Of a stretch of DNA of 64,000 nt, positions 43,322 to 60,587 are shown piece by piece. A program made the position numbers and the translations under genes. The notes under the pieces were generated by a model. It was not told where the DNA came from, did not search any database, and was given only the letters and a program-made list of their open reading frames with translations. Within the stretch, counting starts at the first letter, position 1, and every line of letters starts with the position of its first letter. This DNA comes from a virus (taxonomy: Duplodnaviria; Caudoviricetes): positions 1 through 64,000 of the IMG/VR virus record IMGVR_UViG_3300028483_000002; one strand, given 5' to 3'.

Positions 43322-43393
43322 TCTTCTATCTCAAATTCTCTTAAAGTTTTGTATAGAATATCTAAATCACCACGACACCAACCCAATAAATAT

Positions 43394-43729
43394 TCAAACA
43401 TTCTTCTTTACCTCACCAAAAGTATTTTTAATCTTCATTAAGACTGCTCCAACTTGTGATAGTTCTGAAATGCAATATTCAAGGTATTCTTCAATGACTA
43501 TATCAATATCTTTTGGATTTATTTTTGTATCTTGTTTAATCCATTTCCAAAAATCTTCTAAAGAATATTTTATTCTTGTCATATCTTCGCTTGCTTCTTC
43601 CACTTCTTCCAAAAGAACAGCATAACCCTCGTGAAGTGAGTGGTATTTTTCTCCAAACTTTTCGCAAGCATTCTTATATTCTGTTTGGATAAGTTCATTT
43701 ACTAACTTTTCTGTTTCTGGTGCAAACAT
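43394..43729 (-). CDS. MazG-like nucleotide pyrophosphohydrolase
   Basis: HEGYAVLLEEVEEA..ELSQVGAV. Confidence 0.65.
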   Translation of the reverse strand: MFAPETEKLVNELIQTEYKNACEKFGEKYHSLHEGYAVLLEEVEEASEDMTRIKYSLEDFWKWIKQDTKINPKDIDIVIEEYLEYCISELSQVGAVLMKIKNTFGEVKKNV

Positions 43730-44988: not shown

Positions 44989-45160
44989 AAAAAAAGCTAA
45001 CCACATTTCTTCTCCCAAAAGGAGGTTGCGTAAGAAATATGATTAGCAAAAATTTTTCAACTTAAAAAATCACGCAACACAATTTCTTAAACTGAAACAA
45101 AAAAAATAATTTACATTTGTAAACTTAACTTATAATAAATCACAGGTGTTATTTTGTCAA
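44989..45160 (-). promoter_or_regulatory. Kissing-loop leader K1 (promoter, hairpin, terminator)
   Basis: TTGACA-17-TATTAT; hairpin loop GTTGCGT; terminator bulge ACGCAAC; T7. Confidence 0.7.
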
Positions 45161-45182
45161 GATTAATTTTAACATTTGTAAA

Positions 45183-46814
45183 CTAATAACCAAACATTTT
45201 ATTCAATTGTCTTAAACTTTTCCCTTTTGGAATGATAATTCCAGATTCCGTTTGAACTGTTCCGCCATGATCTCTAGCATAATCAGAATTATTTTGATTA
45301 ATCTTTTCTTGCATTTTTCGTTCTGCACGTTGAGACCAATAATTAATCGTTTGTGTATTCCCACACGCAATATTAGACAAGGCAAAACTCCAAAATGTAT
45401 CTGCATGCCCGTTTTCATCTCGGTCTGCATCATACCTAAAATTATTTCCACTAGTTGCAATTCTTCTGATACTGTGTATTTGATGATGCAAGTTTTTATC
45501 ATTTGGCAAAATGAACTCTCTGTGTTGTAACCCTATTTTTATTCCCTGTGCCATTTCCTCTTTCGCTTGGGCTGTAAAATATATTCCTTCAACTTTTGCT
45601 TTTCCAATATCTTTTTCAAGTCTTTCAAGTATCGGCAACCCCATTCCCGTACAGTCAATACACATTCTTCTAATAGGCAATGCCTGATTCAATCTTTTTA
45701 TTGCTGCAATCTGATATTCAAAATCTTTACCCCTTAATTCTTCATACCCAAAAACTTTCTTTTTACCATTTGGCAAAAGCCCCAAAACAAAAATACTTGC
45801 CGCATCTCTTTTTTTCGCAATATCATATCCCAAGTACAAAACTCCATGTTTTTCCGGATTGTATTCTGTAGTACACATATCATCTACAGTCTTGCAAATT
45901 TGTAATTCTTTACCAAAAAAACTATCTGCTTCACCAAATTCTAAATCTTTTTCTAAATCTTCATTAGAATAATCTTCATTCATTCCAGGAGTACAAGAAT
46001 AAATTTCCTCCAAAGTGATATAACTTTCGGCGCTATCAATAAACAGACATTCACACTCTTGCTGAAAATCCTCCAAAACATCGTTCCTAAAAATCTCTTT
46101 TAATGTTTCTGTTGCAAACTTCTCAACTCTTTCCTCTGTATTCATATTAGGTGCTTCACGAACAGCTGTTCCTACATCGATACATAATGCAGTCGAAAAC
46201 CACCAAGGTACATTAAATCTTTGATATGCAGGATATTTTTTTTTGTCAGTACATATCTCATAAAATCTCCCAATACATCCTAATGGTGTTGAGCCTACTT
46301 CAATCGTTCCTCCGCGTGAAATAACATATAAAGCGGCAGTGTATACTAATTTAGACATGTTAGGAAGAAATATACCGTATTCATCAAGAGAAATGTCCCC
46401 ACCTTTTCCACGAGGTGGTCTACAAGGCATAGAAATTAAACGAGATGTAGTTTTCCCATTTGCGTCCAATAATTCAATTTCTGATTTATTCTCTGTTCTA
46501 ATTCTTTTTTTTGCAAAATTTGGAATTGAATCATAAAACTCCCGTATATACCTAATTTTTTCTTGTGCGTCAGATTCATTATAAGATACAAATTGTTTTA
46601 CATATTTTTGGCGGCCAGGATCTAAAGCCTTAGACAACCCTTTTAATCCTGTCGCAAAAGAAAATCCAGTACGTCTGGATTTGAGAATTGAAATAAATTG
46701 TTTTGTTGATAAGATAAAATCTTCTTGCCAAGGATCAAGAATTAATTGTTTATCATCGAATTTACAGTAAGCGTAGAGATAATCTAATCTTTGTTCTGGT
46801 GTTAATTTATCCAC
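45183..46814 (-). CDS. terL: Terminase large subunit
   Basis: ILKSRRTGFS Walker A (Mu gp28-like), ISLDE, VGSTPLG, LGYDIAKKRD, HADTFWS; GTG start. Confidence 0.93.
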   Translation of the reverse strand: MDKLTPEQRLDYLYAYCKFDDKQLILDPWQEDFILSTKQFISILKSRRTGFSFATGLKGLSKALDPGRQKYVKQFVSYNESDAQEKIRYIREFYDSIPNFAKKRIRTENKSEIELLDANGKTTSRLISMPCRPPRGKGGDISLDEYGIFLPNMSKLVYTAALYVISRGGTIEVGSTPLGCIGRFYEICTDKKKYPAYQRFNVPWWFSTALCIDVGTAVREAPNMNTEERVEKFATETLKEIFRNDVLEDFQQECECLFIDSAESYITLEEIYSCTPGMNEDYSNEDLEKDLEFGEADSFFGKELQICKTVDDMCTTEYNPEKHGVLYLGYDIAKKRDAASIFVLGLLPNGKKKVFGYEELRGKDFEYQIAAIKRLNQALPIRRMCIDCTGMGLPILERLEKDIGKAKVEGIYFTAQAKEEMAQGIKIGLQHREFILPNDKNLHHQIHSIRRIATSGNNFRYDADRDENGHADTFWSFALSNIACGNTQTINYWSQRAERKMQEKINQNNSDYARDHGGTVQTESGIIIPKGKSLRQLNKMFGY

Positions 46815-46933
46815 GAAAAACCCCTTGTTTTGTAAAAAATGATAAAATAGGATAATTTTTGTGGGATATTTTTATAAATTTTTTAATAAAAAAACAATTT
46901 AAAAATTAAAAACCATGAAGATTTTAATACAAA

Positions 46934-47641
46934 TTAATCATAATCAGGCTGATTCTCGTTAGTTTCGATGTATTCACCAGCAGCTTCTCTAATTTCTTGA
47001 TTTCTAAGTTTAATTGTTGTTTTAACTGATGCGAAGTTTTCTTTGATTACATCAAGAGTAGTTTCAACATCATACTCGTTGTTTGATTTAGTACCATTCA
47101 ATTGTTCATTGAGTTTGAACAGTTCTTGTGTTTCTTTTTCTCTGTTAGGTAGTTTGTATGTTGGTATGCCCGAATTATTAATCTCAACGTTATCAATGAT
47201 ACTCGCTTGTTCTTCACTCATATTTTTTAGAGGTCTAATAACAGTGATATTTCGTACAGCCCCAGATTCTGTTTGTATTTGTTCATTTTCGTAGTAATCC
47301 TTAATGTTGTATGTGGCCCTAGAAATTTTTTGAGAAATTAATTTATCAACAGCATCTTTTACGGAAACCTTAATTTGTTCATCTGTAAATTTTTTAATAA
47401 GATTTGCAACAGTAGGGCATTCACGAATTAATTTGTGTTTGGCAACGTAAGAAGTTTTTGTAGAATACCCAGCTTTTTGAGCTGCAACTGTAGGATTTTT
47501 ATATCCATTTTGTCCTGGCGTTGTATACCAAATAATTAATAACTTTTGCCGTTTTAATAATTTTACATCGCCCCAGTCATAAGCATCTAAATCAATTATT
47601 GAGCCATCTGGTAATGTATCTGTATACTTTTCTCTCCCCAT
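46934..47641 (-). CDS. terS: Terminase small subunit
   Basis: NPTVAAQKAGYSTKTS HTH motif; directly upstream of terL. Confidence 0.85.
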   Translation of the reverse strand: MGREKYTDTLPDGSIIDLDAYDWGDVKLLKRQKLLIIWYTTPGQNGYKNPTVAAQKAGYSTKTSYVAKHKLIRECPTVANLIKKFTDEQIKVSVKDAVDKLISQKISRATYNIKDYYENEQIQTESGAVRNITVIRPLKNMSEEQASIIDNVEINNSGIPTYKLPNREKETQELFKLNEQLNGTKSNNEYDVETTLDVIKENFASVKTTIKLRNQEIREAAGEYIETNENQPDYD

Positions 47642-47647
47642 TTTTAA

Positions 47648-47902
47648 TTACTCCTCCAAAACAACAGCAATATCATTGTTGTCGCAAATATGAGTAGCAC
47701 CATCAATTGTTACTTCAACTAATTTATATTTGTCTACTAGGACAACATCCCCATTTTTTATGTCTTTTATTTCGCAAGGGCATTCAACCACTAAAGCCTT
47801 GATAAATCTTTCTTCTGATTCTTTAGTTAAAATAATTCCAGAACTTGTTTTATTTTCAATTTCAATTTTTTTAATTAATACTTTGTTGTTCAACATTTTC
47901 AT
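47648..47902 (-). CDS. groES: GroES/Cpn10-like co-chaperonin
   Basis: LNNKVLIKK..KTSSGIIL..GDVVLVDKY..VTIDG. Confidence 0.85.
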   Translation of the reverse strand: MKMLNNKVLIKKIEIENKTSSGIILTKESEERFIKALVVECPCEIKDIKNGDVVLVDKYKLVEVTIDGATHICDNNDIAVVLEE

Positions 47903-48062
47903 TATTTTCCCCTTTCATTTTACATTTATGTAAGACATAAACTTTAATTTCTCTGCCCGTATAAGTGTATGCTGTTTGTTCTTCTGCATCACAACATACA
48001 ACTTGATCTTTGGTGGTTGGAATATACCTAATTTCTTTTTGGCAAATCTGACATAACTGCAT
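47871..48062 (-). CDS. Small Cys-containing hypothetical protein
   Basis: 63 aa CQIC..CCD; coupled to neighbours. Confidence 0.5.
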   Translation of the reverse strand: MQLCQICQKEIRYIPTTKDQVVCCDAEEQTAYTYTGREIKVYVLHKCKMKGENNENVEQQSIN

Positions 48063-48366
48063 TTACTTTATTCCTCAAATCTTGTCCGTTACAAGAGTAA
48101 AACCAATCAAATTGGGTTATTTCCCCGTTACAAATGTCAAATTCAAAAGCCCCAAAATATGGGGAATATTCAGTTTTCAATTCTCCAATTTGGTTTTCAA
48201 TATCTTTTAAACTAACTGTCTGGTTAGAAGAATTACATTTTGAATTCATTGACAGAGCCACAACGTTTGATTTTTCCACACCAAAACGAACATGCCCCTG
48301 AAACCCCGAGCATAACAAATTAGATAATTCACAAATAATAAAATTAATCATCATTACACCACCCAT
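48028..48366 (-). CDS. Hypothetical protein with two DUF2292-like units
   Basis: GFQGHVRFGVEKSNVV and PYFGAFEFDICNGEITQF; preceded by TAGACT-17-TATAAT. Confidence 0.45.
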   Translation of the reverse strand: MGGVMMINFIICELSNLLCSGFQGHVRFGVEKSNVVALSMNSKCNSSNQTVSLKDIENQIGELKTEYSPYFGAFEFDICNGEITQFDWFYSCNGQDLRNKVNAVMSDLPKRN

Positions 48367-48404
48367 TTTAATTATATATCAAAAATTTAATTAAGTCTAG
48401 TTTA

Positions 48405-48845
48405 CTAAACTTCTTTGAAAATAATTTCTGAATATTTATACTTAAATAATTTTCTTTTCAAAATGTATGTGGGATTTTTTTTAGTAATTTTGCTCTTAAC
48501 ATCTTCTGCAATAGTTTTTCCGTCTTGTTCATAAACAAAATCTGCAATGTAGTAAACAGCCCTTTCATCTTTTGTTTTTGGTATGATCTCATATTTTTTT
48601 TGGCATTCTAAATTATGAATAAAGCCTTGTTCCTGTAATTTTTTTAATTCAAAAAACCTTTGTGCTTCTTTCTGTGAATCAAATGTGCCAAATTCTGTAA
48701 TTGTCTTTTTTGCATTATATTTATTTTTGCCCTTAAAATATTTGCAATCAGAACACTCATAAATTGTCGTTCTCAAAACTTCGCAATAAAACATGTTAGA
48801 ATGAATTGTGATAACTTTTGCATTTTTACATTTTGCACATTTCAT
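48405..48845 (-). CDS. DUF1064-family PD-(D/E)XK nuclease
   Basis: NKYNAKKT..FDSQKEA..YIADFVY..EDVKS. Confidence 0.85.
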   Translation of the reverse strand: MKCAKCKNAKVITIHSNMFYCEVLRTTIYECSDCKYFKGKNKYNAKKTITEFGTFDSQKEAQRFFELKKLQEQGFIHNLECQKKYEIIPKTKDERAVYYIADFVYEQDGKTIAEDVKSKITKKNPTYILKRKLFKYKYSEIIFKEV

Positions 48846-48904
48846 TTTTACCCCTCCAAAGAAATGACAGAGATTAAATAAATAACCCCTGCCATTTTTT
48901 ATTA

Positions 48905-49234
48905 TTAATCTTTAGACAATTTTACACCTGTAAAAATACCAAAAATTAATAATAATACACCACCAACTGCTGCGATTAGTTTAGTGATATTATCTGCCGG
49001 AATACCAGCCAAACCTAAAAGAAAAGAACCAACAGCAATTAAAATAATTGCTAAGATTGTTTTCCAATCTTTTTTTTCTGATTTTTTCCAAACAGACATA
49101 CATGCACTTGCTGCGGCAACAAAAGCCACAGCTAAAGCTGAATACTCAACAATTGCAACATCAGTAAAGAATGCAACAATTGTTCCAATTAGCACTAATG
49201 CTAAACAAACATACTTGAAAACTTTGCTATTCAT
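48905..49234 (-). CDS. Four-helix membrane protein (holin-like possibility)
   Basis: Four hydrophobic segments, internal repeat. Confidence 0.55.
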   Translation of the reverse strand: MNSKVFKYVCLALVLIGTIVAFFTDVAIVEYSALAVAFVAAASACMSVWKKSEKKDWKTILAIILIAVGSFLLGLAGIPADNITKLIAAVGGVLLLIFGIFTGVKLSKD

Positions 49235-49342
49235 GTTTTCACCTCCCTTTATTTTTCTAGTTTTACAACGGGTAAGGTAATAATAATATTACACGCAGCA
49301 TGAAGCTGGCATTTCCCCGTAAAAAACTAGCAAACCCCAAAA

Positions 49343-49786
49343 TTAAAAAGGCATTCCTTCACCAAATTCACTGTCAGAATATCCACCCCAATTATCACTA
49401 TTTTGTTGTGGATAAATATTTTCAGGTTGGAAATCAGCCTTTTGATTTTCTGCATTTCTGGCCCCAACTAGTTGAACACTGTTAGCAACAATTTGAATTT
49501 TGCTGAACTTTTGACCATCTTTTTCCCAACGGTCTTGTTTTAAATAACCATCAACGGCAATTTTTTGACCTTTTACCAAATATGGTTTTAAGTTTTCAGC
49601 AGTTTTTCCCCAAATAGTAATATCAAAATAGCTTACTTCATCGACCCATTGATCCCCGTTTTTTTTACTTCTGTTTACAGCAATACTAACACTTGCTTTT
49701 GCAGTGCCATTTGACAAAACAGAATATCCATCTCCAACATCTCTAGTTAGATTCCCAATTAAAACAACATGATTTAAGTCTGTCAT
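49343..49786 (-). CDS. ssb: Single-stranded DNA-binding protein
   Basis: MTDLNHVVLIGNLTRD..WGKTAE..GQKIAVDGYLKQDRW, acidic tail ending MPF. Confidence 0.95.
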   Translation of the reverse strand: MTDLNHVVLIGNLTRDVGDGYSVLSNGTAKASVSIAVNRSKKNGDQWVDEVSYFDITIWGKTAENLKPYLVKGQKIAVDGYLKQDRWEKDGQKFSKIQIVANSVQLVGARNAENQKADFQPENIYPQQNSDNWGGYSDSEFGEGMPF

Positions 49787-49805
49787 TTATTATATCCCCC
49801 TAAAA

Positions 49806-50507
49806 TTATTTATCTCTCATGTTTATTCGGTAAGATTCAAAGTTGAATTCAAGACAAGTACAATTTTCTGTAAATCTGTCATAAATAGGTTGCCCCAAAT
49901 ATTCAATCAATTCCATTTTTGATTTATTTGAAATCAAAACAGTGCTTTTATTTTTTTCATATCTCTCATTTAAAATCATGAAAAGAAATTTTACCTCATC
50001 TTTGCTTTCAAATTTGCCAATTTCGTCAATCACCAATAACGGATATTCAGCATATCTTTTGATTAAATCAGAGTTAGATTCTTTTGCTTTAAAACTTTTG
50101 CAATCATCTAGTTCTAATTCGATTTGGTATGATTTTACGTAATGACTTCCCCAACACTCCCGACAGATAATAGCAGCTAGCATTGTCTTTCCTGTTCCAG
50201 GATTGCCAACTAACCACAATGTCCTTTTCAAATAATTAATAACAAAGTCTTTTATTTTATCTAAAATATTTTTTTTCTGTGGAATATCAATTTTAAAACT
50301 ATCAAAACTACAATTCCAATATTTAGAACCGATTCCACTTTCTTTTAGTCTTTCAAACTTTGCTGTTTCATTAATATTTTTTTGGTGTTCTTTTTCAAAG
50401 ACTGTATCGTCAGCAGAAAGTGGCACTTCTTCCCATTCCTGCATTTCTTTGCATATTTCATCTAAACGACCCAACCCATAAGAAACACCTTGTTTTATTT
50501 CCCCCAT
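49806..50507 (-). CDS. DnaC/IstB-like helicase loader ATPase
   Basis: GNPGTGKT Walker A, LVIDEIG Walker B, ISN, YDRF. Confidence 0.9.
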   Translation of the reverse strand: MGEIKQGVSYGLGRLDEICKEMQEWEEVPLSADDTVFEKEHQKNINETAKFERLKESGIGSKYWNCSFDSFKIDIPQKKNILDKIKDFVINYLKRTLWLVGNPGTGKTMLAAIICRECWGSHYVKSYQIELELDDCKSFKAKESNSDLIKRYAEYPLLVIDEIGKFESKDEVKFLFMILNERYEKNKSTVLISNKSKMELIEYLGQPIYDRFTENCTCLEFNFESYRINMRDK

Positions 50508-50516
50508 GTTTACCCC

Positions 50517-51332
50517 TTAAAAAGCAATATCTGCTTCTGTGAAATTATCTGGAATTCTATCACTCCTAGATTTTCCAATATTTTTTGGATCATAATAATT
50601 ATTTTTATTTGGCCCATCTCTTTGTTCGTATGCAGAAATTCCCCATTTTTTAAGAGCAAGATAATCAGAGTTATATTTATACCCTTTCATTTCTTTCAGT
50701 TCTGAAAAAAAGTTAATAATATTATTTGTTTTTTCTTCACCGTGTTCTGTTTTTAATTTATCAAATTCAGAATCAGAAAGTAAAACATTTTTATACTCAC
50801 CATATTTATTTTTTTTAGGCTTTGTTTTTTTAGGCTTTTCTTCTGGTATATATATATTATTAATACTTGTATTGTTAACTCTTGTATTATTCTCTTTGGC
50901 AATTTGGCAATACCCCTCTTGCCAAATATCAATACCCTCTTGGCAATTTGGCAATACCCCTTGACAAATATCAATACCCTCTTGGCAATTTGGCAATACC
51001 CCTTGACAAATATCAATACCCTCTTGATTTTCTGCACTACCTTTAGCATTTGTATTAATAAAGATTTTTCTCTCAGTACATTCCTTGCCATTGTATTTAT
51101 ATTCAATCTTGATATACCCTTTATCTGCAAGCTGCTTTAACCATTTTGAAATTGAAGAAGGATCAACTTCATACAATTTTGCAAAATAATTATTTGATGC
51201 ATAACAATAGCCATCTTTTTCTGATAAACAAGTTAATTCTGAGTATAAAAGTTTTGCATTTGCTTTTAATGATTTATCATATCGGACTGTAGCCGGTATA
51301 ATTCCAAAATATGACGGTTTTTCTTTACCCAT
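50517..51332 (-). CDS. Phage replication initiator (winged-HTH N-terminus)
   Basis: AKLLYSELTCL..GYCYASNNYFA..LADKGYI; internal iteron repeats; upstream of loader. Confidence 0.88.
   Translation of the reverse strand: MGKEKPSYFGIIPATVRYDKSLKANAKLLYSELTCLSEKDGYCYASNNYFAKLYEVDPSSISKWLKQLADKGYIKIEYKYNGKECTERKIFINTNAKGSAENQEGIDICQGVLPNCQEGIDICQGVLPNCQEGIDIWQEGYCQIAKENNTRVNNTSINNIYIPEEKPKKTKPKKNKYGEYKNVLLSDSEFDKLKTEHGEEKTNNIINFFSELKEMKGYKYNSDYLALKKWGISAYEQRDGPNKNNYYDPKNIGKSRSDRIPDNFTEADIAF
50896..51026. repeat. Iteron array / probable replication origin inside initiator gene
   Basis: Three ~42-bp tandem units (six CAATACCC cores) encoding GIDICQGVLPNCQE. Confidence 0.8.
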
Positions 51333-51353
51333 TTTTTACCCCCTATATATTTT

Positions 51354-51764
51354 TTACACCACTTGTTTTAAGTTTTGATTTTCAATCTCAACCCACTTAA
51401 AATTAACATCATCCCACTTTGCAGGAACAAAACAATTTTTTTCGATGCTCCAAATACTTCCTGGCTCAATAGGCCTTTCATTCCATTTAGTTCCATCACT
51501 TCTACAAGTATAAAATAATCGGAATGTGTCTACTGTAATCCTATCTGAATTACAATTAGGGCATCTATATTTATCTTCATAAAACAATTTGCCTTGCCCA
51601 TCTGGAGTTTTCATGTATACAGAGTAAGTAACAACAATTAAAGGCTTTAAAAAGTCTTTGTACTTTTTACCTTCGTTTTCAGCCTTTTTAACACAGTAAG
51701 GACAATATGAATATTTATCTTCTCCACTTAAATATTTTTTACCAACTTCTTTAATATTTTCCAT
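51354..51764 (-). CDS. Zinc-finger hypothetical protein
   Basis: CPYC and CPNC motifs. Confidence 0.6.
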   Translation of the reverse strand: MENIKEVGKKYLSGEDKYSYCPYCVKKAENEGKKYKDFLKPLIVVTYSVYMKTPDGQGKLFYEDKYRCPNCNSDRITVDTFRLFYTCRSDGTKWNERPIEPGSIWSIEKNCFVPAKWDDVNFKWVEIENQNLKQVV

Positions 51765-52098
51765 CTATAGCCCCCCTATTTTTTTTCATAGACACCCCAT
51801 TTTTTTTTATAGCCCCCCTATTTTTTTTATATAGGGTGTCTATAGGCCCCCTATTCCATCGTTGGTTTGCACCTTTTTGACCGTTTATTTTCGATGTTTC
51901 AAGGTCTAAATCATAAAAATCTTTGATAGATTCAAAATATTTCTTTGTTTTTTTATTTAATTTGGGTGTTGTTCCTTTTTCTGCATAATCAATAATTGCA
52001 ATAATCAAACTTTTTGCATTTCGACCAGATAACTCGACAAAAGCACCTTTATACAAATAAAAAAATTTAAACCATCTTGATTTTTTATTGTGCTCCAT
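51751..52098 (-). CDS. Short DUF6291-like replication-protein N-terminal domain
   Basis: AIIDYAEKG..FESIK..INGQKGA; ends within G/A-run repeats. Confidence 0.55.
   Translation of the reverse strand: MEHNKKSRWFKFFYLYKGAFVELSGRNAKSLIIAIIDYAEKGTTPKLNKKTKKYFESIKDFYDLDLETSKINGQKGANQRWNRGPIDTLYKKNRGAIKKNGVSMKKNRGAIDGKY
51765..51856. repeat. Second iteron-like array (~21-bp period)
   Basis: ATAGCCCCCCTATTTTTT / ATAGACACCCCATTTTTT units repeated 4-5 times. Confidence 0.7.
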
Positions 52099-52100
52099 AA

Positions 52101-52907
52101 TTATTTACTCCTATTTATTAATAAAGAATTGTTTTCCTGTACTAATTCTGCTGCTTTACGTTGAGCAGTTTCAATTTTTCCTCTCAAATGAGGATAACGT
52201 TCTAAAAATTCATCATAATTTTTACATTGTTGGTGAAAAAAATTATGTTCATCAGGCGTAAGAGCAAGGATATTCCATGCTTTGTCAATAGCTGCAGGAC
52301 ATGCCCCACGTGATACAATATGGTGATAATGGACAGGCGTTCTTCCACTTGCCTCTGAAAAAATAACATACTCTCGCATTTCTTCAATACTTGAAAATTC
52401 TTCAAATTCATTTTCCGGCTTATACTTCCATTCTTCCCATTCATAAATGAACTTTCTAACACTACTTTGCAAATCAATTGATAACTCGCACAATGTAGCA
52501 AGATGGAATAGTAAAGAATTAATGAATCTTCCGGCCTGTTCTGTATTCATTTCTGATAAGTGAATAGGTCGTAATCTATCGTTTAATCTGGATGGTTTTT
52601 TATCTGCATATTCTTCAAGTAAATCACAATACAATTCATATAATTCTTCATGTGTTCCATTGCGACCTTCCATGCTCTGAAAAATTATGCTAATTAAAAT
52701 CCATACAGCATTATTTTGTTTAAATGTTCTATGTTGATATGGAGCATTTATTTCACACCTGAGTAAAACTTCTTGTTTTGTTCTACCTTCTCTTTCTTTT
52801 TTATTTCTAAAGAGCTTTTCAACTATGTATCTGTCATTTTCATCTACAAGTTTTAAGACAATAAAATTATTCTGATAGACACCGTGAAAATGTGATATTA
52901 TTTTCAT
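52101..52907 (-). CDS. Putative HNHc-type nuclease
   Basis: C-terminal HYHHIVSRG..ALTPDEHNFFH; downstream of recT. Confidence 0.7.
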   Translation of the reverse strand: MKIISHFHGVYQNNFIVLKLVDENDRYIVEKLFRNKKEREGRTKQEVLLRCEINAPYQHRTFKQNNAVWILISIIFQSMEGRNGTHEELYELYCDLLEEYADKKPSRLNDRLRPIHLSEMNTEQAGRFINSLLFHLATLCELSIDLQSSVRKFIYEWEEWKYKPENEFEEFSSIEEMREYVIFSEASGRTPVHYHHIVSRGACPAAIDKAWNILALTPDEHNFFHQQCKNYDEFLERYPHLRGKIETAQRKAAELVQENNSLLINRSK

Positions 52908-53710
52908 CGCACACTCTCCTTTATTGCTCTATCAACTGAATAACCCTTTCTTAAACGGTTATAAAGCATATTCTTTGAAAGATTTAGCTCTCTGCACCAA
53001 TCAGAAACACACTGTGTTTTACCCTGATATGTTAGAAAATGATTTTTTCGAGTATTACAATTTTGTCTTTCCAATGGAATCCAGGTACAATTATTAGGTT
53101 CATAATTTCCATTGAAATCCTTACGTTCAATAGTTAGGTTATCAGCATAACCATTGTCATAAGCCCATTTTCTGAAACAATCAAAATCTAGCCAATCATC
53201 ACAAATTGTAATTCCTCTTGCACCATACCACTTCCAATTTACAGAACTTTTTACAAAACATCTGGCTTTCATATTTGACCATATTTTATATAATCGTGTA
53301 TAACAACCACCGTGTTTTGTAGTTCCGATTTTTCTATGAGCTTTGCCTAAACAACCACAAGACAATATTTTTCCGGCTTTCAAATCTGGACTAGAAACAT
53401 CTTTTATTGTTCCACAATCACACAGAACCTTAAAAAAAGCCTTATTCTTAATGGTTTTAGAATAACTTAATACAGTGAGAATTCCATATCTATTACCGGA
53501 AATATCTTCATATTGTTTTGTATGTTTTAAGCATCCACAACTTTTTGTATGGCCTGACTGTAAATGACATAGACTAACTGTACAGGTATTTCCACAATCA
53601 CATAAACATTCATAATATGATGCATTACGACCATTATTTTGTTTCTTGTAAAAGTGTTTCTGTAGTGTAAGAATTCCTATTCTTTTTCCAACTAGATCAT
53701 TTACAGCCAT
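52904..53710 (-). CDS. HNH-type homing endonuclease-like protein
   Basis: Two CDCG..SCGCL repeats, RLYKIWSNMKARC, YGARGITIC, TIERKDFNGNYEPNNC. Confidence 0.85.
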   Translation of the reverse strand: MAVNDLVGKRIGILTLQKHFYKKQNNGRNASYYECLCDCGNTCTVSLCHLQSGHTKSCGCLKHTKQYEDISGNRYGILTVLSYSKTIKNKAFFKVLCDCGTIKDVSSPDLKAGKILSCGCLGKAHRKIGTTKHGGCYTRLYKIWSNMKARCFVKSSVNWKWYGARGITICDDWLDFDCFRKWAYDNGYADNLTIERKDFNGNYEPNNCTWIPLERQNCNTRKNHFLTYQGKTQCVSDWCRELNLSKNMLYNRLRKGYSVDRAIKESVR

Positions 53711-53739
53711 TTTTTTACTTCCCCTTAGAAAATATCGTT

Positions 53740-54669
53740 CTAAAATACACTAGCATTATCAAAAGCCTGTGAAACCGCCATTTCTTCATCAGGACTTAAC
53801 ATTTGTTGCTGTGGTAAAGATTGTGGTTGGTTTTCAACAGTTATTTTCGCTGTTTCTACAATTTCAACATCATCTGCAACATCTGAAACGTTATAATCTT
53901 CTTCATTTAATACAGTTGCGTCTTTCAAATCTTCTTTTTCTTCTCTTTCTACAGCATCAAGAGCTTCAATTGAAATAGGACACAATTTTAATGCCTGAAT
54001 TACACAAGTTTTTAATGCCATTGCATCAAAATTCTTATTCCAAATGTTTTCTTTATCGTCTTTGTTGTAAGCCTTAGAAAATTTATCTCTATGCAATTCA
54101 ACATCTTTTTTGCTCATGACTTTAAATTGCACACCACCGTTTTCTAATTCAACTAAACAGTAATACCCAACGATTTCACCACGTTCTTTTTTTAGATCCA
54201 TTCGATGAGATAGATTTCTACCCACACCTAACTGAACGTCAAAAATGTCATTCTCATAAACCGGTTCTGCGGCAATAGTTTTAATAGTTGCAGAACGTCG
54301 AGCTAACGCAATTAAACCTTTATACCCCATTTGAAAATGACAAATCATTCTCTTTTCCCATTTGCCATTTACATTCACACTTTCATTGTAAGGTATAAGA
54401 TACGCTTGCCCTAAAGTGCCATTCAATTCCAATCCATAACTAGCAGCTTCTTTTAAAGCTCTAAAGATTGAATCTTTATCACAATTTAAAAGCTGTTTTT
54501 GCTTTGGATTTGTAATAGCAAGAAAAGCAGATTGCATAAATCTGTCAATTTCTACAGTTCCTTTTGGAATAGCAGAAAGAAAAGATTCCTTTCTTTCACT
54601 CAACCATTCACCCAAAGTTCCAGTTTTACCTGTCTGTTGAGTAACAGGTACACTTCCGTTTGTTTTCAT
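53740..54669 (-). CDS. recT: RecT single-strand annealing protein
   Basis: GLELNGTLGQAYLIPY..FQMGYKGLIALARRS..MALKT. Confidence 0.93.
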   Translation of the reverse strand: MKTNGSVPVTQQTGKTGTLGEWLSERKESFLSAIPKGTVEIDRFMQSAFLAITNPKQKQLLNCDKDSIFRALKEAASYGLELNGTLGQAYLIPYNESVNVNGKWEKRMICHFQMGYKGLIALARRSATIKTIAAEPVYENDIFDVQLGVGRNLSHRMDLKKERGEIVGYYCLVELENGGVQFKVMSKKDVELHRDKFSKAYNKDDKENIWNKNFDAMALKTCVIQALKLCPISIEALDAVEREEKEDLKDATVLNEEDYNVSDVADDVEIVETAKITVENQPQSLPQQQMLSPDEEMAVSQAFDNASVF

Positions 54670-54682
54670 TTTTTTCTCCTAC

Positions 54683-54842
54683 AAAAAAAGCCGCCCTGAA
54701 TCCCACAATTTCAAGACGGCCCAAATTGCTTTTAAAGCAATTAAGCAATGTGGGCAAACTTAATCACTCTACCAATTTTTTATAAAAGCACAGTTTCCTG
54801 TACCCTTATATTAAAAGTATCACATCTAATACTTTTTGTCAA
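54683..54842 (-). promoter_or_regulatory. Kissing-loop leader K2 with operator B
   Basis: TTGACA-17-TACTTT; hairpin loop CCCACA; terminator loop TGTGGG; T7. Confidence 0.65.
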
Positions 54843-54845
54843 TTA

Positions 54846-55841
54846 TTATTTTTTAGAAATTCTTAAAACTTTTGAAACAGATTCTTTTGAATATTCTTCA
54901 AAAAGCCCAGATTTTTTTAACAAATCTGTATCTACCATTTTTTTTCTTTGAGTATTGTAAGTGAGTTTGTATTTATCACCAATTGCAGTTACTTTATCTA
55001 TTTTTTTGCTGTCATCAGATGATAATTTATAAAGGTTCACAACAATTTGATTTTTAATCTGGTCTAGTTTTTGTTTTAATTTTTTTATTTCTTCATCTAA
55101 TTGTTGTTGTTCTTCAACCAATTGATTTGTTTCATCATCTAATGTAATTTCTGCATTAATTGGTAAATTTTTTAGGTAATCTTTTTCAGATTCAACACCT
55201 TTTGGAGCAGGAGGAACATTCGCTAAAACATTATTTTCCCAAAAATCACGTTCTGCAGGAATTAAAGTTGTATAAATAAATTCATCGCTGCGAAGAATAA
55301 CATAATGTCGTGCTTTTTTTGATGATAAAATAAAAACAGTTAAAATAAACCAAGGTAAATCAGTTACAGCCATATAGTGCTGTACTTGGCAATAATAACT
55401 ATCTGGAATTTCACCATCCCCAAAACCATCACCTTTTGCACTAGTTTTGATTTCATGGCCACCAAAACCTTGAATTTCTTTCCCCTCAATTATTTTTGCC
55501 ACTGGAACATAGCACAAACCGTCTAAATTCGCATTCATAAACGGATAATCATAACTAGTATACATTCCTGGTACAGTTACAATTTCAATTCCCAACTCTT
55601 TAGCTGTCATTTGTCTAATAGGATCTTCTAGAATATGCCCCCATTCCGTTGAAGCATTTCCTTCAAATCCATTAATGTTTTTTTTAGCAAAATAGACATT
55701 CAAAGCTGATGTATACTCATTCATTCCTAAAATTGCACCAGCATCACTGCCACCAATTCCAGTAGTTCTTAATTCTAACCATTTTTTTTCTTCTGTTGCT
55801 TGATCAACAGGTGTAAATTTTGCATTAATTTTTATATCCAT
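54846..55841 (-). CDS. YqaJ-family viral recombinase exonuclease
   Basis: WLELRTTGIGGSDAGAILG..ANLDG..HEIKT..YYCQVQHYM. Confidence 0.93.
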   Translation of the reverse strand: MDIKINAKFTPVDQATEEKKWLELRTTGIGGSDAGAILGMNEYTSALNVYFAKKNINGFEGNASTEWGHILEDPIRQMTAKELGIEIVTVPGMYTSYDYPFMNANLDGLCYVPVAKIIEGKEIQGFGGHEIKTSAKGDGFGDGEIPDSYYCQVQHYMAVTDLPWFILTVFILSSKKARHYVILRSDEFIYTTLIPAERDFWENNVLANVPPAPKGVESEKDYLKNLPINAEITLDDETNQLVEEQQQLDEEIKKLKQKLDQIKNQIVVNLYKLSSDDSKKIDKVTAIGDKYKLTYNTQRKKMVDTDLLKKSGLFEEYSKESVSKVLRISKK

Positions 55842-55976
55842 AACTATTTCCTTCCTTTTTTTTCTTTAATATAAAAGCCTTGTGCCGCTTTCATGTAAAA
55901 TTGCATTAATAAAAAATCCTTTTTATTAAAACATTCCATTGCTTTTTTCACACATTCATTATGTTCTTTTGTGTAA

Positions 55977-56168
55977 TTACTCTTGTATATCATCTTCATA
56001 ATCCATTTCCTCATCTTCAATTAATGTGTGAATCTTTTTTTCATCCAAATTGTTGCTTTTAATGTAATTATCAATTTTCTTTTGTGCCTCATAGTTATTT
56101 TTACACCAAAAGTCAGCAATTTTTTGGCCATCTGCATCAAAAATATATCCAATTGAACAAACTGCCAT
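55977..56168 (-). CDS. Small hypothetical protein
   Basis: AGGAGG RBS before ATG 56168 (MAVCSIG..). Confidence 0.55.
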   Translation of the reverse strand: MAVCSIGYIFDADGQKIADFWCKNNYEAQKKIDNYIKSNNLDEKKIHTLIEDEEMDYEDDIQE

Positions 56169-56169
56169 A

Positions 56170-57183
56170 TTATTCCTCCTTCCCATTGCATTCACCTTTT
56201 GGATTGTAATATGTCCCATCTTTTATTCTAGAATAAATATCAAAAGCCTTTTTTAATATTTCCATACCTTTCTCTGTAATTTTATTATCATCATCAATGT
56301 ATTCATTTGCTAAAATTGTTTTTTTACCTGTAAAATCTGCATAATGACGAATTTTTAAATATTCCTTAATCATGTTTTCAGGAATATCTAAAATTACAGA
56401 TGCTTCTTTCAATGTATAAGAATGACTTTCAACAGATTCAATAAACTTTTCAGAAGTTTTATTGATAATTTTTTGATATTCTTCTTCACCTTTTTCAATA
56501 AAACTCTCTGCAACAGCTCCAGGTTTATACTTATTAATAAAGTATGTAATCCCTTCCATATTTAAAAGAAGTTGTTCACCTGTTTTGTCTGTTGATTTGT
56601 TAAAAGTTCTTAAAGTGAAGTATTTTTGATATTCTGCTTTTGCTCTGTATTCACCAATAGAATTTTTATAAACATATTTTGCTTTCAAAATTGTCATAAA
56701 TTCTGTTTGTTTCATACCGAGTTTTGCGGCCATATCTCTAAAGTTCATTGTCTTAGATCGGTCTACTAATTCATCATAAACAACTGCTTTTGGTTGCATA
56801 ATTGCTACTTGATGTCTAATGTTGTCTAATGTTTGGTTTGCAAGTTGCAAGGCTCTAGACATTACAGCTTCTGGTGTGTTCCATGCTTTTTCGAGTCTGA
56901 TTAAATAATTGCGATATGTTTTACCAATTTCTGTTCTAGACATTAAACAGATTGATTTAGCCATATCAATAGAAATTGCATAGTCTTGAATTTCTTGTTC
57001 TCCACCATGTTGGTTGCCCTGTATCTTTAAATACACCCCAGAAAAATCTTCATTTTCAACGAACTCTTTAGAATTATTTTCCCACCAAAGAGAAAAACGA
57101 CATTTAATTTGTAAACCTTTGTACAATTCTCTAGCTGATACAGCTTGAATTCCGTCTTTTTCAATAATTTGTAATTCGTTCAT
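56170..57183 (-). CDS. AntA/AntB + KilA-C antirepressor
   Basis: AVSARELYKGL..DYAISIDMAKSICLM..R.YLIRLEKAWNTPEAVMSRAL; MQPKAVVYD. Confidence 0.9.
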   Translation of the reverse strand: MNELQIIEKDGIQAVSARELYKGLQIKCRFSLWWENNSKEFVENEDFSGVYLKIQGNQHGGEQEIQDYAISIDMAKSICLMSRTEIGKTYRNYLIRLEKAWNTPEAVMSRALQLANQTLDNIRHQVAIMQPKAVVYDELVDRSKTMNFRDMAAKLGMKQTEFMTILKAKYVYKNSIGEYRAKAEYQKYFTLRTFNKSTDKTGEQLLLNMEGITYFINKYKPGAVAESFIEKGEEEYQKIINKTSEKFIESVESHSYTLKEASVILDIPENMIKEYLKIRHYADFTGKKTILANEYIDDDNKITEKGMEILKKAFDIYSRIKDGTYYNPKGECNGKEE

Positions 57184-57185
57184 AG

Positions 57186-57878
57186 TTACCCTCTCTTTTG
57201 AAGTTTGTCTAATGTTTTTTTGATATAATCAACACCCTTTTGAAAAACAACTGTTTTAAGGTTGATGTGGGTATCTCCGTCTTTATCTTCAAACTTTGTT
57301 TCGATAACTCTGAAATATCCAGCGTCAATATATTTCTGATATGGTTGATTGTGATTGTCTAAGATTTTTTCATCTCGTAAGATTTCAAAAAGTTTATTTC
57401 TGCCGACATTCTTATAATTAAGAAGTTTTGCAACTTCTTTCATATCGCAAGTATCAGGTGAACCTGTTACTTTGTTGTAGAAGTCAACCTTTGGCTGCAT
57501 ACTATTTAGCTGTGCCATCAATTCATTGTTACGATTTTGCAAAATTGCCATTGCTTTCATAACAATTTGATTTTCTTCTACTTGTGTAGAAACAGAATCA
57601 ATTTGTCTTGTTGCCAAGTTGTGATGCTTTTGAATTTCCTGTTTAATCAATGTTGCTTGTTCTTCGGTAAAAACCTTGACAGATTGATTTCCACCATTGG
57701 TTTTTAAGGTATGGAAAGTACCTTCCACCCCTTTAGTTTTAGCTGTTTCTCTAATTGTTCTTTCTGATACTCCAAGAACTGTGGCAAGTTCTTTTGTAGT
57801 CATTGTTTTTTGATTTTGCTGTGTGGAAGTTTTCACGCTTGTAAAATCTTTATTTTCAATAATTTGCAATTCATTCAT
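57186..57878 (-). CDS. KilA-C (ANT) antirepressor
   Basis: MQPKVDFY..EVAKLL..GRNKLFEILR..PYQKYIDAGYF..TVVFQKG. Confidence 0.9.
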   Translation of the reverse strand: MNELQIIENKDFTSVKTSTQQNQKTMTTKELATVLGVSERTIRETAKTKGVEGTFHTLKTNGGNQSVKVFTEEQATLIKQEIQKHHNLATRQIDSVSTQVEENQIVMKAMAILQNRNNELMAQLNSMQPKVDFYNKVTGSPDTCDMKEVAKLLNYKNVGRNKLFEILRDEKILDNHNQPYQKYIDAGYFRVIETKFEDKDGDTHINLKTVVFQKGVDYIKKTLDKLQKRG

Positions 57879-57880
57879 AA

Positions 57881-58357
57881 TTAGTTCCCTCCATTTAATG
57901 ATTCAGGCAAAGCGTTTGTTTTTAATGTTTCTTCTGTAACTGAATTAAAGAAATCAATGTTTAGTTTCTTTGCGTTTTTCCAAAATTTAAGAAGAAATTG
58001 AAATTCTTCGTTTTCTGAATTTCTAATTCTTTCCCGAAATTCCTGTGTGGCATCAGTCAATCTTCTTTCTAGCATCATGTAATTTTTCATAATTTTATTG
58101 CGTCGTAAATTCAATGCTGCCATTTCTCTGTTGTAGATGTTTGAGCCAGGAATCATTCTTGTTGTTGCAATAAATTCAGTCTTTTCCTGTTTTAAATCAT
58201 GAAGGGAATCTTTTACTTTTCTAAAGATTTTACTTATCTCTTTTGGAGATAAAAGATCAAGTTCCTTTTCTGAAAACTGATAGTTTTCAAAATTTGAAAT
58301 TTGTAGTAAACTATTTTTTGAGTTTACCGATACTTTAATTGTAGGTGTCATAGACAT
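57881..58357 (-). CDS. Hypothetical helical protein heading the antirepressor operon
   Basis: 158 aa, GGAG RBS. Confidence 0.6.
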   Translation of the reverse strand: MSMTPTIKVSVNSKNSLLQISNFENYQFSEKELDLLSPKEISKIFRKVKDSLHDLKQEKTEFIATTRMIPGSNIYNREMAALNLRRNKIMKNYMMLERRLTDATQEFRERIRNSENEEFQFLLKFWKNAKKLNIDFFNSVTEETLKTNALPESLNGGN

Positions 58358-58417
58358 CTCCTATAAATTTTCGTGTTACTAGGTGCTTGGCGGTGCGATA
58401 AGTAACACGAAAGAAAT

Positions 58418-58560
58418 AAAAAAGGCTCAAGCCTTTTCCATCACAAAAAGTCTTGAGCCAGAGGTCTACACACCCACTTTTATAGTATCGGTGATCACCC
58501 TGACAGAGCAATCAAGTAGTGTGATGGACCTGCTTCATTACTCTATAGGTTGTAAAGATG
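58418..58560 (-). ncRNA. Structured leader/small RNA K3 (paralog of K5)
   Basis: Hairpin AGAGTAAT/ATTGCTCT with loop GTCCATCACA; terminator GGCTCAAG/CTTGAGCC with loop TGTGATGG; promoter TTGACA-16-TATAAT at 58610-58583. Confidence 0.7.
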
Positions 58561-58640
58561 AATATTCGTCTTTACATTTGTCATTATAGTTAAGTATTTA
58601 TCTTTGTCAAGTTAAAAAAGATAAATATTCATCTTTTTTT
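58551..58640. promoter_or_regulatory. Operator C sites between K3 promoter and XRE2
   Basis: TGTAAAGATGAATATTCGTCTTTACA and AAAAAAGATAAATATTCATCTTTTTT palindromes. Confidence 0.7.
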
Positions 58641-58645
58641 TAATT

Positions 58646-58915
58646 ATGGACTTCTACGAAAACGTAAAAATTCTTGTAAAAAAACATGGGCTTCAGTTAA
58701 TACCTTTGTTGGAATCGTTAGGAATTAACTATTCAACTTACAAAGGGTACAAACAGTATGGCAATCTTCCAAGAGCTGACGAAGCGGTGAAGATTGCTCA
58801 AGCCCTCGAAACCACTGTTGAATACTTAGTAACTGGTAATAAACCAGACCTAAGTTCTAAAACAAAATCTCTAATAAATGAATTAGAGATGACCATAAAT
58901 AAGTACAAAAACTAA
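58646..58915 (+). CDS. XRE-family HTH regulator 2
   Basis: LGINYSTYKGY..LPRADEAVKIAQALETTVEYLVTG. Confidence 0.9.
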   Translation: MDFYENVKILVKKHGLQLIPLLESLGINYSTYKGYKQYGNLPRADEAVKIAQALETTVEYLVTGNKPDLSSKTKSLINELEMTINKYKN

Positions 58916-59763
58916 GCATCTGGTTGAATAGATTCGTCTATTTCTGCATTGAATTTCTTCGCAAGATAAACAAGACCTTTTCCAGTAACCAATGTTACAG
59001 GTTTACTTCCAATCTCATCGTTAATATGTTTAACTACAACTTTGAAATGACCTGAGTTTATTTGGTCTTGCTTAGGAGAGTTATCTTGATTTAATACTTG
59101 TAAGGTTCTTAGATTCTGAAATAAAGTTTTGTTACCATAAGGGAGTTTTAATGCTTTTGCAGCCTGATTAACTGTATAACAGCCTTTGCCATCAGCAATG
59201 CGATTAAGAGCTGTTTCTGCTAATTCAGCTCTGACTGTTAATTCTTCAATTCTTTTATCTCGATATGCATCTAAAAGTTTTTGTTCTTCTTCTCTTTTCT
59301 TTAATAAAGCAAAAAACTCTAAATCATTGCCAATTTGAGAAACAACAGAGTTATCTTTTAAATTATTACGTTCTCTCAATTTTAATTTTATTAAGGTTGC
59401 TTGTTTTTCAGTTAATAAGTAACCACCTTGATTATTTTTTTTGACTTCGCCAAGTACTTGCCGGAGTTCGTTTATATTATTTTTAATTGTACTTTCTGCT
59501 ACTTTTAAGTCATTTGCTAATTCTTTTACAGTTACAACTACAGCAACTTCTGCTGCCTTTTTTATTTTTAATGCAGGTATTAGGTCGGTAGTAGTTTCTA
59601 ACCTACAAGGCTGCCTTGTAGGTTCTAGAGTTTCTGCAACTTGTTTCACTGTCATTGTTTTTTGATTTTGGTTAATTTCTAATTCGTTCATGTTCTGTTG
59701 AACAACCTCTTGTTTTTGTGATAAAATAACACTTGGTTTAGTCGATGATTTTATTGTAGTCAT
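58912..59763 (-). CDS. KilA-C-type antirepressor with tandem N-terminal HTH-like segments
   Basis: TMTVKQVA, VTVKELANDL; YTVNQAAKAL..GNKTLFQNLR..TLVTGKGLVYL. Confidence 0.85.
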   Translation of the reverse strand: MTTIKSSTKPSVILSQKQEVVQQNMNELEINQNQKTMTVKQVAETLEPTRQPCRLETTTDLIPALKIKKAAEVAVVVTVKELANDLKVAESTIKNNINELRQVLGEVKKNNQGGYLLTEKQATLIKLKLRERNNLKDNSVVSQIGNDLEFFALLKKREEEQKLLDAYRDKRIEELTVRAELAETALNRIADGKGCYTVNQAAKALKLPYGNKTLFQNLRTLQVLNQDNSPKQDQINSGHFKVVVKHINDEIGSKPVTLVTGKGLVYLAKKFNAEIDESIQPDA

Positions 59764-59779
59764 TAACTATCTCCTTTTT

Positions 59780-60006
59780 AAAATTAGAGAAGTTAAGGGT
59801 TTTTATCTCTAATTTTTAAGATAAAAAACGACCCTAAAAACTTTCCTACATTGCAACTGCAATGTTAACCCCAGGAAAGTTTTTAAGGTCGTAAGTTGTT
59901 TTACCAACTTAGAAATGGGGTTAAAATTTCTAAAGTGGCAAACTAACCTTATAATTAACGTTTGTAAACTACAATTTAATATAAAATACATCTGTTGCTT
60001 TGTCAA
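59780..60006 (-). promoter_or_regulatory. Kissing-loop leader K4
   Basis: TTGACA-17-TATATT; hairpin loop TAACCCC; long terminator with GGGGTTA bulge. Confidence 0.7.
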
Positions 60007-60061
60007 TAATATTTACATTTGTTAATTTTTATTAAAGTAATTTATGTATAAACCGATACAT

Positions 60062-60190
60062 AAAAAAAGGCACAAGCCTTATCTTCCCTTTAAGACTTGT
60101 GCCAAACGGAGTAAAACCTAATATAGGATGGCGATTACCCTCGGCAGAGCAATCAAATAATAGGGAAGCCTTATTTCATTGCTCTAGTTA
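60062..60190 (-). ncRNA. Small structured RNA K5 (paralog of K3)
   Basis: Promoter TTGACA-17-TATATA (60221-60193); hairpin AGAGCAAT/ATTGCTCT loop GGCTTCCCTA; terminator GGCACAAG/CTTGTGCC loop AAGGGAAGA; T7. Confidence 0.72.
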
Positions 60191-60260
60191 TATATATAAT
60201 ACACATTTGTTTAATTGTCAATAAACTTTTGTGTATTAATTATTAATATTTAAAATTATT

Positions 60261-60587
60261 ATGGAATTTTCTGCTGAATTAATTATTAATCGCATAAAAG
60301 ATTTATGTGAATTGAAAGAATTAGAAAAAATAAGTATTTCTCCCCAAGTAGTTTCAAATTGGAAATCAAGAAATACAGTGCCAAAAGCAGATGATTTATA
60401 CAGAATTGCAAAATATTTAAATGTAACAATGGAATGGCTGCTAACCGGAGAGAATCCAAATACAGAACTTCCAGAAGATATTCAAAAATCAGTTCAAAAA
60501 ATGCTAACTTTAACCGAAAAGCAACGTGAACCAATTAATGTGCTTATTGACGGACAAGTAAATTATTGGAAAAATATAGATAGATAG
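60261..60587 (+). CDS. XRE-family HTH regulator 3 (candidate CI-like repressor)
   Basis: ISPQVVSNWKSRNTVPKADDLYRIAKYLNVTMEWLLTG. Confidence 0.9.
   Translation: MEFSAELIINRIKDLCELKELEKISISPQVVSNWKSRNTVPKADDLYRIAKYLNVTMEWLLTGENPNTELPEDIQKSVQKMLTLTEKQREPINVLIDGQVNYWKNIDR

Follow-up and report, generated by a model that had tools for sequence, protein, structure and literature searches.

Leader RNAs with a putative kissing-loop contact to their own terminators precede antirepressor, recombination, and accessory genes in a temperate phage

Phages P1 and P7 possess an RNA-based immunity in which the C4 RNA controls an antirepressor operon. In the repZ system of ColIb-P9 and IncB plasmids, a hairpin loop pairs in cis with a distant complement and thereby activates expression, a trans-acting Inc RNA with the sequence of the distant partner competes for that loop, and the specificity of the pairing defines incompatibility groups. 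Here, we describe five leader RNAs, K1 to K5, of a temperate phage (IMG/VR virus record IMGVR_UViG_3300028483_000002; Duplodnaviria, Caudoviricetes), in each of which the loop of a 5' hairpin is complementary to unpaired positions of the intrinsic terminator that follows it. The stretch of DNA analyzed, hereafter the window, is the first 64 kb (positions 1 to 64,000) of this 73.6-kb record; it has approximately 30% G+C and carries nearly all of its genes on the minus strand. An initial annotation of the window had read the five leaders as a phage-wide system of RNA kissing-loop attenuation or immunity with orthogonal specificities.

Other described systems combine RNA complementarity with termination in different ways. 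RNA-based immunity of the P4 and P1/P7 type controls replication or antirepressor operons. The immunity RNA of the satellite phage P4, CI RNA, is presented in the summary given by PMC4825925 as pairing its seqB with seqA and seqC. In the isrK-orf45-anrP operon of Gifsy-1, one promoter gives rise to both a short terminated RNA and a read-through antirepressor mRNA, and the short form, IsrK, competes in trans with the cis copy for the complementary site (PMC4825925). In the pT181 and pIP501 attenuators, kissing-loop recognition decides whether the leader terminator forms, and changes in the loops yield orthogonal regulators (PMC4878617).

All five leaders are encoded on the minus strand and share one design, namely, a promoter, a 5' hairpin (H1) of 38 to 47 nt, and a strong intrinsic terminator. 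Within the H1 loop is an "address" (X) of 6 to 9 nt that is Watson-Crick complementary to unpaired positions of the terminator (X'), and the five addresses of this genome are mutually different. Two classes were distinguished by the place of X' (the contact between X and X' is called the kiss below). In class A (K2, K3, and K5), X' lies in the apical loop of the terminator, usually flanked by a U-rich stretch on one side and an A-rich stretch on the other. In class B (K1 and K4), X' is a bulge of 7 to 9 nt between an outer stem of 16 to 20 bp and an inner hairpin. The parts of the five leaders are as follows.

45160-45155 (-35) and 45137-45132 (-10), minus strand: K1 promoter (11/12 in the promoter scan), with operator-like palindromes at 45182-45169 and 45123-45110 (0 and 1 mismatches)
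45055-45097, minus strand: K1 H1, X at 45078-45072 (7 nt), from folds and parse
44989-45047, minus strand: K1 terminator of class B, with an outer stem of 16 bp, X' as a 7-nt bulge at 45031-45025, an inner hairpin, and a T-run at 44995-44989
54814-54842, minus strand: K2 promoter-like site read by eye, -35 TTGACA at 54842-54837 and only an extended -10-like TGnTACTTT
54733-54771, minus strand: K2 H1 with the class A conserved base, X at 54754-54749 (6 nt), from folds and a covariance model (CM) match of 26 bits
54683-54722, minus strand: K2 class A terminator, X' at 54707-54702 in the apical loop, T-run
58583-58610, minus strand: K3 promoter (12/12 consensus in the scan), operator-like site at 58584-58571
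58503-58546, minus strand: K3 H1, class A, conserved base with a G-G mismatch, X at 58528-58520 (9 nt), from folds
58418-58459, minus strand: K3 terminator of class A, with X' at 58445-58437 and a T-run at 58423-58418
59978-60006, minus strand: K4 promoter (11/12 in the scan), operator-like sites at 60025-60012 and 59968-59955
59900-59942, minus strand: K4 H1, X at 59924-59916 (9 nt), from folds and parse
59822-59892, minus strand: K4 terminator of class B, with an outer stem of 20 bp, X' as a bulge at 59873-59865, an inner hairpin, and a T-run
60193-60221, minus strand: K5 promoter read by eye, TTGACA, 17 nt, and TATATA, divergent from the CI-like gene
60145-60186, minus strand: K5 H1, class A, X at 60168-60162 (7 nt), from folds
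60062-60103, minus strand: K5 terminator of class A, with X' at 60089-60083 and a T-run at 60068-60062

As seen, all complements lie where the initial annotation had placed them, and folds and scans agree that the five leaders follow one design. The lengths given for the complements of K1, K2, and K5 were correct, whereas those of K3 and K4 are both 9 nt, one and two more than had been claimed. Three of the five sigma70-like promoters were recovered by the scan (-35 elements at 58610, 60006, and 45160), but those at 60221 and 54842 were recognized only by eye. The K2 promoter is the weakest of the five; it is absent from the promoter scan list and lies 4 nt past the stop codon of the YqaJ exonuclease gene. 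K1 and K4 do have the proposed sub-architecture in common, but they are not wholly dissimilar in sequence, as their H1 stems share short AT-rich words.

The minimum free energy (MFE) fold of each leader consists of the 5' hairpin and the terminator, with z scores of -3.5 to -7.0, and 0 of 200 shuffled sequences folded as well. The terminators have stems of 11 to 20 bp and hairpin energies of -15 to -34 kcal/mol followed by T6 to T7, and all five were classified as intrinsic terminators. Some opening of these folds is needed for the kiss. In class A, this concerns the weak U-A pairs at the upper end of the terminator stem, and in K1, the H1 loop is further closed by G-U pairs in the MFE fold, so that the kiss requires opening of the loop.

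To what extent such complements arise by chance was evaluated at the level of single leaders and of the genome. When the H1 loop was shuffled and compared with the whole downstream part, the observed length was reached in 15 to 269 of 5,000 trials per leader. This corresponds to individual P values of 0.003 to 0.05 and, if the leaders are independent, to a joint probability of approximately 5e-10. A strict blind scan of terminators found the feature at 4 of 27 on the minus strand (K1, K3, K4, and K5) and at 0 of 25 on the plus strand. In the sister phage G001, the same scan found it at 2 of 30 coding-strand terminators and at 0 of 32 on the other strand. A looser scan of the whole 73.6-kb genome returned all five leaders along with four weak matches of 6 to 7 nt among approximately 65 other terminators. 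The term "phage-wide" therefore says too much, since in the blind scans the other terminators, including those before late genes, were without the feature. When duplexes were ranked by energy, cognate pairs were on average about 2 standard deviations better than noncognate pairs, a noisy measure to which letters of the stems also contribute. Overall, the pairing between loop and terminator is not due to chance.

Next, homologues were collected. A pattern built on the conserved H1 base common to K2, K3, and K5 retrieved true homologues from viral contigs, GTDB genomes, and metagenomes, and each of these class A homologues has a promoter, the same H1 base, a terminator, and a complementary pair of its own. 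Two homologues of K2, in contigs L153 and L179, also precede recT and carry a different address. Class B relatives were found through neighboring proteins and a CM. They include an orthologue of K1 in the complete 80.5-kb genome of G001 (43389-43443), which has the same X on entirely different stems, and an orthologue of K4 in L303, which lies before an 83%-identical Ant gene and has the same architecture with another address. Further class B leaders were found at G001:21291-21354 and L179:1214-1332. A pattern derived from the words common to the H1 stems of K1 and K4 was also tried, and the 40 loci it matched in viral contigs were all spurious coding sequence.

Altogether, 20 leaders, which come from this phage, from its sister G001, and from 12 further contigs, fold alike. 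The cognate complement measures 6 to 10 nt in 19 of 19 parsed leaders, compared with a noncognate median of 4 nt, and pairing is kept across approximately 19 different addresses, which is the covariation among homologues that the initial annotation had named as a check. In an alignment of seven sequences (A3) with the kiss treated as a pseudoknot, the structure was 92.6% paired, compared with 81.5% in shuffles, and none of 500 shuffles reached the observed value. Sliding the partners against each other lowered the pairing to 31 to 51%, and both sides change in four of the seven kiss pairs. RNA of the coding strand would account for the G-U pair that is invariant in H1 and for the U-G pairs of the terminator, and CM scores of the reverse strand were far lower.

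The divergence between close relatives is concentrated in the address. In L016, L217, and L083, approximately 84 nt of promoter and also the H1 stems are near letter-identical, but 4 to 5 of the 7 address positions differ, with matching changes in the partner. In the paralogues K3 and K5, the stems are kept and the whole address has been swapped. Moreover, the 158-aa gene behind K3 is nearly identical in this phage (G000) and in G001, yet it follows a class A leader here and a class B leader there; the two classes are therefore interchangeable modules. L179 and L016 each carry more than one leader, and several phages have mixed sets of leaders. Judged from these comparisons, the pairing of X and X' is a selected RNA-RNA contact. 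Drift of a purely internal scaffold would hardly produce change so concentrated in the address, and this suggests that the identity of the pairing matters between molecules. The orthogonal specificities of the initial annotation, and action in trans with them, thus find indirect support in the address-focused divergence of near-identical leaders and of K3 and K5.

The composition of the pairs also has a polarity. For approximately 17 of the 19 parsed leaders, the address in the H1 loop is rich in C and poor in G, and its partner in the terminator is rich in G; the exceptions are K1, its orthologue, and the leader of L235. The C-rich H1 loops recall those of Firmicute small RNAs.

A comparison with the systems described above places the leaders near several of them. 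As in P4 CI and P1 C4, an RNA element of the leader is complementary to sites in the same transcript, and the complementary sequences covary among relatives, here in approximately 19 X/X' pairs. The outcome in CI and C4 is premature termination of early or antirepressor genes, and a similar outcome may be expected here. Unlike them, the leaders have no relation to these RNAs in sequence or in Rfam, their partner lies inside an intrinsic terminator hairpin and not at a ribosome-binding site (RBS), and they occur beside protein repressors with operators, with five separate addresses in one genome. The target of IsrK lies downstream in orf45 and concerns translation, whereas here the short RNA contains both partners and probably acts on termination. 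ColIb-P9 differs in being a plasmid system that works at the level of translation with a true antisense competitor and no terminator. The pT181 and pIP501 attenuators require an antisense promoter and the pairing of a pre-emptor with a terminator arm; neither was seen in K1 to K5, as the scan found no plus-strand promoter-like site inside any leader, and inspection of the folds found no alternative pairing of a terminator arm.

The leaders are also like the lambda PR'-6S RNA-tR'/Q unit, HK022 put, Bacillus EAR, and canT of Tn916, in which a promoter-proximal RNA or terminator gates a long operon of a phage or mobile element (PMC9378689; PMC11658703). However, put, EAR, and canT are not themselves terminators and are without an address-coded loop pair, the second hairpin of our leaders is, unlike that of put, a canonical terminator with a U-run, and no Q homologue was found among the 40 phage proteins scanned. 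By the features tested, the leaders appear to fall outside the C4/CI, pT181, and put families, and they may resemble these and the Q units in purpose. In agreement with the initial annotation, which had recognized no similarity to known phage RNAs, a cmscan of the window against Rfam 15 gave 0 matches at the gathering score, and the C4 and P4 CI models were not matched. With E values of up to 5 admitted between 44500 and 60400, the only match was RAGATH-26 at 51621-51701 (minus strand), which scored 25 bits (gathering score, 86; E = 0.64) and most likely arose by chance. Literature searches returned no description of a kissing-loop terminator leader design. The family, with its two architectures and approximately 19 addresses, is absent from Rfam 15.

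The genes behind the leaders were annotated by searching 40 proteins against PHROGs, 30 of them also against Pfam. As the initial annotation had proposed, K1 lies before an accessory cassette, K2 before recT, and K3 and K4/K5 before antirepressor operons. The genes concerned are as follows.

60261-60587, plus strand: CI-like helix-turn-helix (HTH) repressor gene, from a protein family scan
58912-59763, minus strand: first antirepressor gene, starting at 59763, downstream of K4
58646-58915, plus strand: second HTH gene, back to back with the K3 promoter
57186-57878 and 56170-57183: second and third antirepressor genes
54846-55841: YqaJ exonuclease gene, ending just before the K2 promoter-like site
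53740-54669: RecT gene, starting at 54669, downstream of the K2 terminator
45183-46814: TerL gene, which follows the replication module and TerS
43735-44637: first gene (pentapeptide-repeat/DUF7666) of the accessory cassette between TerL and the portal gene

One operator-like palindrome, with a consensus near TTTACAAATGTAAA, flanks or overlaps the promoters of K1, K3, K4, and K5, with copies at the sites listed above and at approximately 60200. Since these four promoters have copies of one palindrome, they are probably early promoters under repressor control. In G001, a different palindrome is found at the matching promoters, including that of the K1 orthologue, and the pattern at K1 in both phages suggests that the accessory cassette is under the immunity repressor. 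K5 forms a complete promoter-to-terminator unit (60062-60221) at the position expected for cro, with the K4 promoter immediately downstream of it; a cro-like gene was seen beside neither HTH gene. Because no open reading frame (ORF) lies between the K5 terminator and the K4 promoter, K5 may be a stand-alone RNA of approximately 125 nt or the first of two tandem gates.

Just 3' of the class A H1, there is a further conserved box (GCARTC-like; e.g., 58490-58506 and 60133-60149), present in all class A members and absent from most class B leaders. The box can form 6 to 10 bp with the 3' arm of H1, with changes from A-U to G-U only, and the resulting hairpin excludes H1; in K3, it appears in the MFE fold once the 5' flank is omitted. 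We considered the box as a DNA operator and rejected this, because its distance from the 3' arm of H1 ranges between 4 and 9 nt, a variation ill-suited to a dimeric DNA binder. A leader peptide was likewise rejected, since no ORF is conserved; the frames that begin at the ATG of the conserved class A stem have between 2 and more than 40 codons, depending on the member (read by eye). Another conserved hairpin is found between the leader terminator and the RBS of the 158-aa gene or its paralogue (58372-58409 here; approximately 21365-21420 in G001, L391:1365-1420; and downstream of 13258 in L010). Its stems differ among copies, the loop always has CGCCAA, and it could be a protein or processing site.

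The geometry of the leaders bears on when a kiss could form. X starts 16 to 20 nt from the H1 base in every member, and the spacing from X to X' varies from approximately 40 to 75 nt. In class B, X' lies 16 to 19 nt up the outer stem and the linker measures only 2 to 9 nt, so that the two helices can lie side by side and touch at equal height. X' is transcribed 29 to 39 nt (class B) or 11 to 17 nt (class A) before the end of the terminator stem, which leaves time for a kiss ahead of stem closure, particularly in class B.

Considering all of this, we hold the chances to be about even that K1 to K5 belong to a hitherto undescribed family of leader RNAs, encoded close to promoters in temperate phages, in which a kiss made by RNA alone gates the leader's own terminator. 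In this scheme, the kiss would set the flow of RNA polymerase into the antirepressor, recombination, and accessory genes. H1 would be already folded as X' emerges, and the pairing of X with X' before the 3' arm of the terminator exits would close a ring whose segments are the 3' arm of H1, the linker, and the 5' arm of the terminator. The 3' arm, tethered to the polymerase, could then not wind the needed one to two turns through this ring, which would leave the stem incomplete and lead to read-through. Conversely, if X were occupied first, for example by a free leader RNA with the same address, the terminator would close, and the short RNA would thereby be an address-specific signal for feedback or immunity. 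The kiss may also affect termination in the opposite direction. The rapid change of addresses suggests that RNAs sharing an address may have a trans activity as well, comparable to that of P4 CI, IsrK, and the Inc RNA of ColIb-P9, systems in which a cis pairing competes with an RNA supplied in trans. That the short terminated RNA acts in trans only on nascent leaders of the same address, flipping their terminators and providing operon-by-operon feedback or superinfection immunity, we propose only tentatively. With similar reserve, new addresses might in such a case arise under diversifying selection, like heteroimmune repressor/operator pairs, with loop and bulge being alternative solutions to one physical trick, in which a kiss governs whether the terminator stem closes and no antiterminator overlaps it.

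Several points weigh against a kiss that gates termination and against its extension to trans action. X' lies in unpaired parts of the terminator, and there is consequently no classical, mutually exclusive antiterminator pairing; the topological block is our own reasoning, neither computed nor published; and the leader terminators are strong on their own. Once the short RNA is complete, X is free to pair with X', which would hide both from partners in trans unless the RNA is processed. A search of the 73.6-kb genome for extra copies of X or X' as separate targets gave only scattered chance matches. Furthermore, the operator-like sites at the promoters suggest that the RNAs may not be made in lysogens, which weakens a role in immunity, and the address of K1 is identical in two phages with different operators, so that addresses do not simply track immunity type.

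The strength of the terminators, together with the position of X' outside the stems, also fits a promoter-proximal terminator released by protein, as in lambda PR'-6S RNA-tR', where an antiterminator or a modified polymerase overrides the terminator and the kiss is only a scaffold that keeps the short RNA compact and nuclease resistant or makes terminator folding robust. A kiss formed after both hairpins would be sterically ordinary, and with 27 to 33 terminator-like hairpins on the coding strand, many of them before late genes, some general antitermination is likely in this phage. However, none of the 40 scanned proteins resembled Q, N, RinA, or ArpU, in a genome where several small ORFs, including that of a 136-aa zinc-ribbon protein, have no family. 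A scaffold should drift slowly, yet near-identical leaders change mostly in X and X' and paralogues have swapped whole addresses, and a scaffold gives no reason for five different addresses in one genome. We therefore consider this explanation rather unlikely, although it deserves serious attention. Alternatively, a protein might read the kissing complex, as Rom does on ColE1, or the class A H1 base and box, and switch all leaders together, with the addresses serving only to prevent mispairing. Indeed, among contigs with differing promoters and operators, conservation of the box and of the class A H1 base, including the G-G mismatch in the latter, far exceeds that of the surrounding sequence, and the ability of the box to pair with the H1 3' arm extends to all class A members. 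Nevertheless, class B, which is without the conserved base and box, replaces class A before the same gene, and the protein families common to leader-bearing loci are only HTH regulators, Ant, YqaJ, and RecT, and no candidate RNA-binding protein was identified; a protein reader hence seems improbable, and clearly more so than protein release.

Least of all do the data favor chance complementarity, or inverted repeats acting as protein sites in the DNA, beside ordinary terminators, an explanation to which we give hardly any weight. In an AT-rich genome where complements of 6 to 7 nt occur at approximately 6% of the other terminators in the loose scan, the single P values are modest, but the feature is found in all five leaders, some 19 addresses covary, and the G-U pairs are strand specific. 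For DNA sites, the variable spacing between X and X' is unsuited to a dimeric binder, and the strict scan gave 0 on the noncoding strands.

Some further features of the genome were observed. Many more terminator-like hairpins lie before late genes on the minus strand (8.5 to 40 kb), none with an H1 kiss, and they suggest a separate late antitermination system. Three tandem 42-nt repeats (iterons; 50896-51040) inside the replication-initiator gene (50517-51332) are probably the origin of replication. A GroES-like Cpn10 of 84 aa is encoded at 47648-47902, and an early-region protein of 136 aa with a TFIIB-type zinc ribbon, a possible transcription factor, at 51354-51764. Among GenBank phages, no close relative was found; megablast of the immunity region gave no match, and tblastn with TerL gave only distant phages (at most 37% identity).

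Overall, the kiss is a plausible gate on early genes. If the kiss does gate termination, the leaders would constitute a compact, protein-free control of a terminator without a competing antiterminator helix, with a specificity that resides in 6 to 10 loop letters and is easily rewritten by evolution. Such leaders would be ready-made orthogonal parts for synthetic RNA circuits. In the phage itself, they would explain the silencing or timing of the antirepressor and recombination genes and would add an RNA layer to the immunity of gut and rumen Firmicute-type phages.

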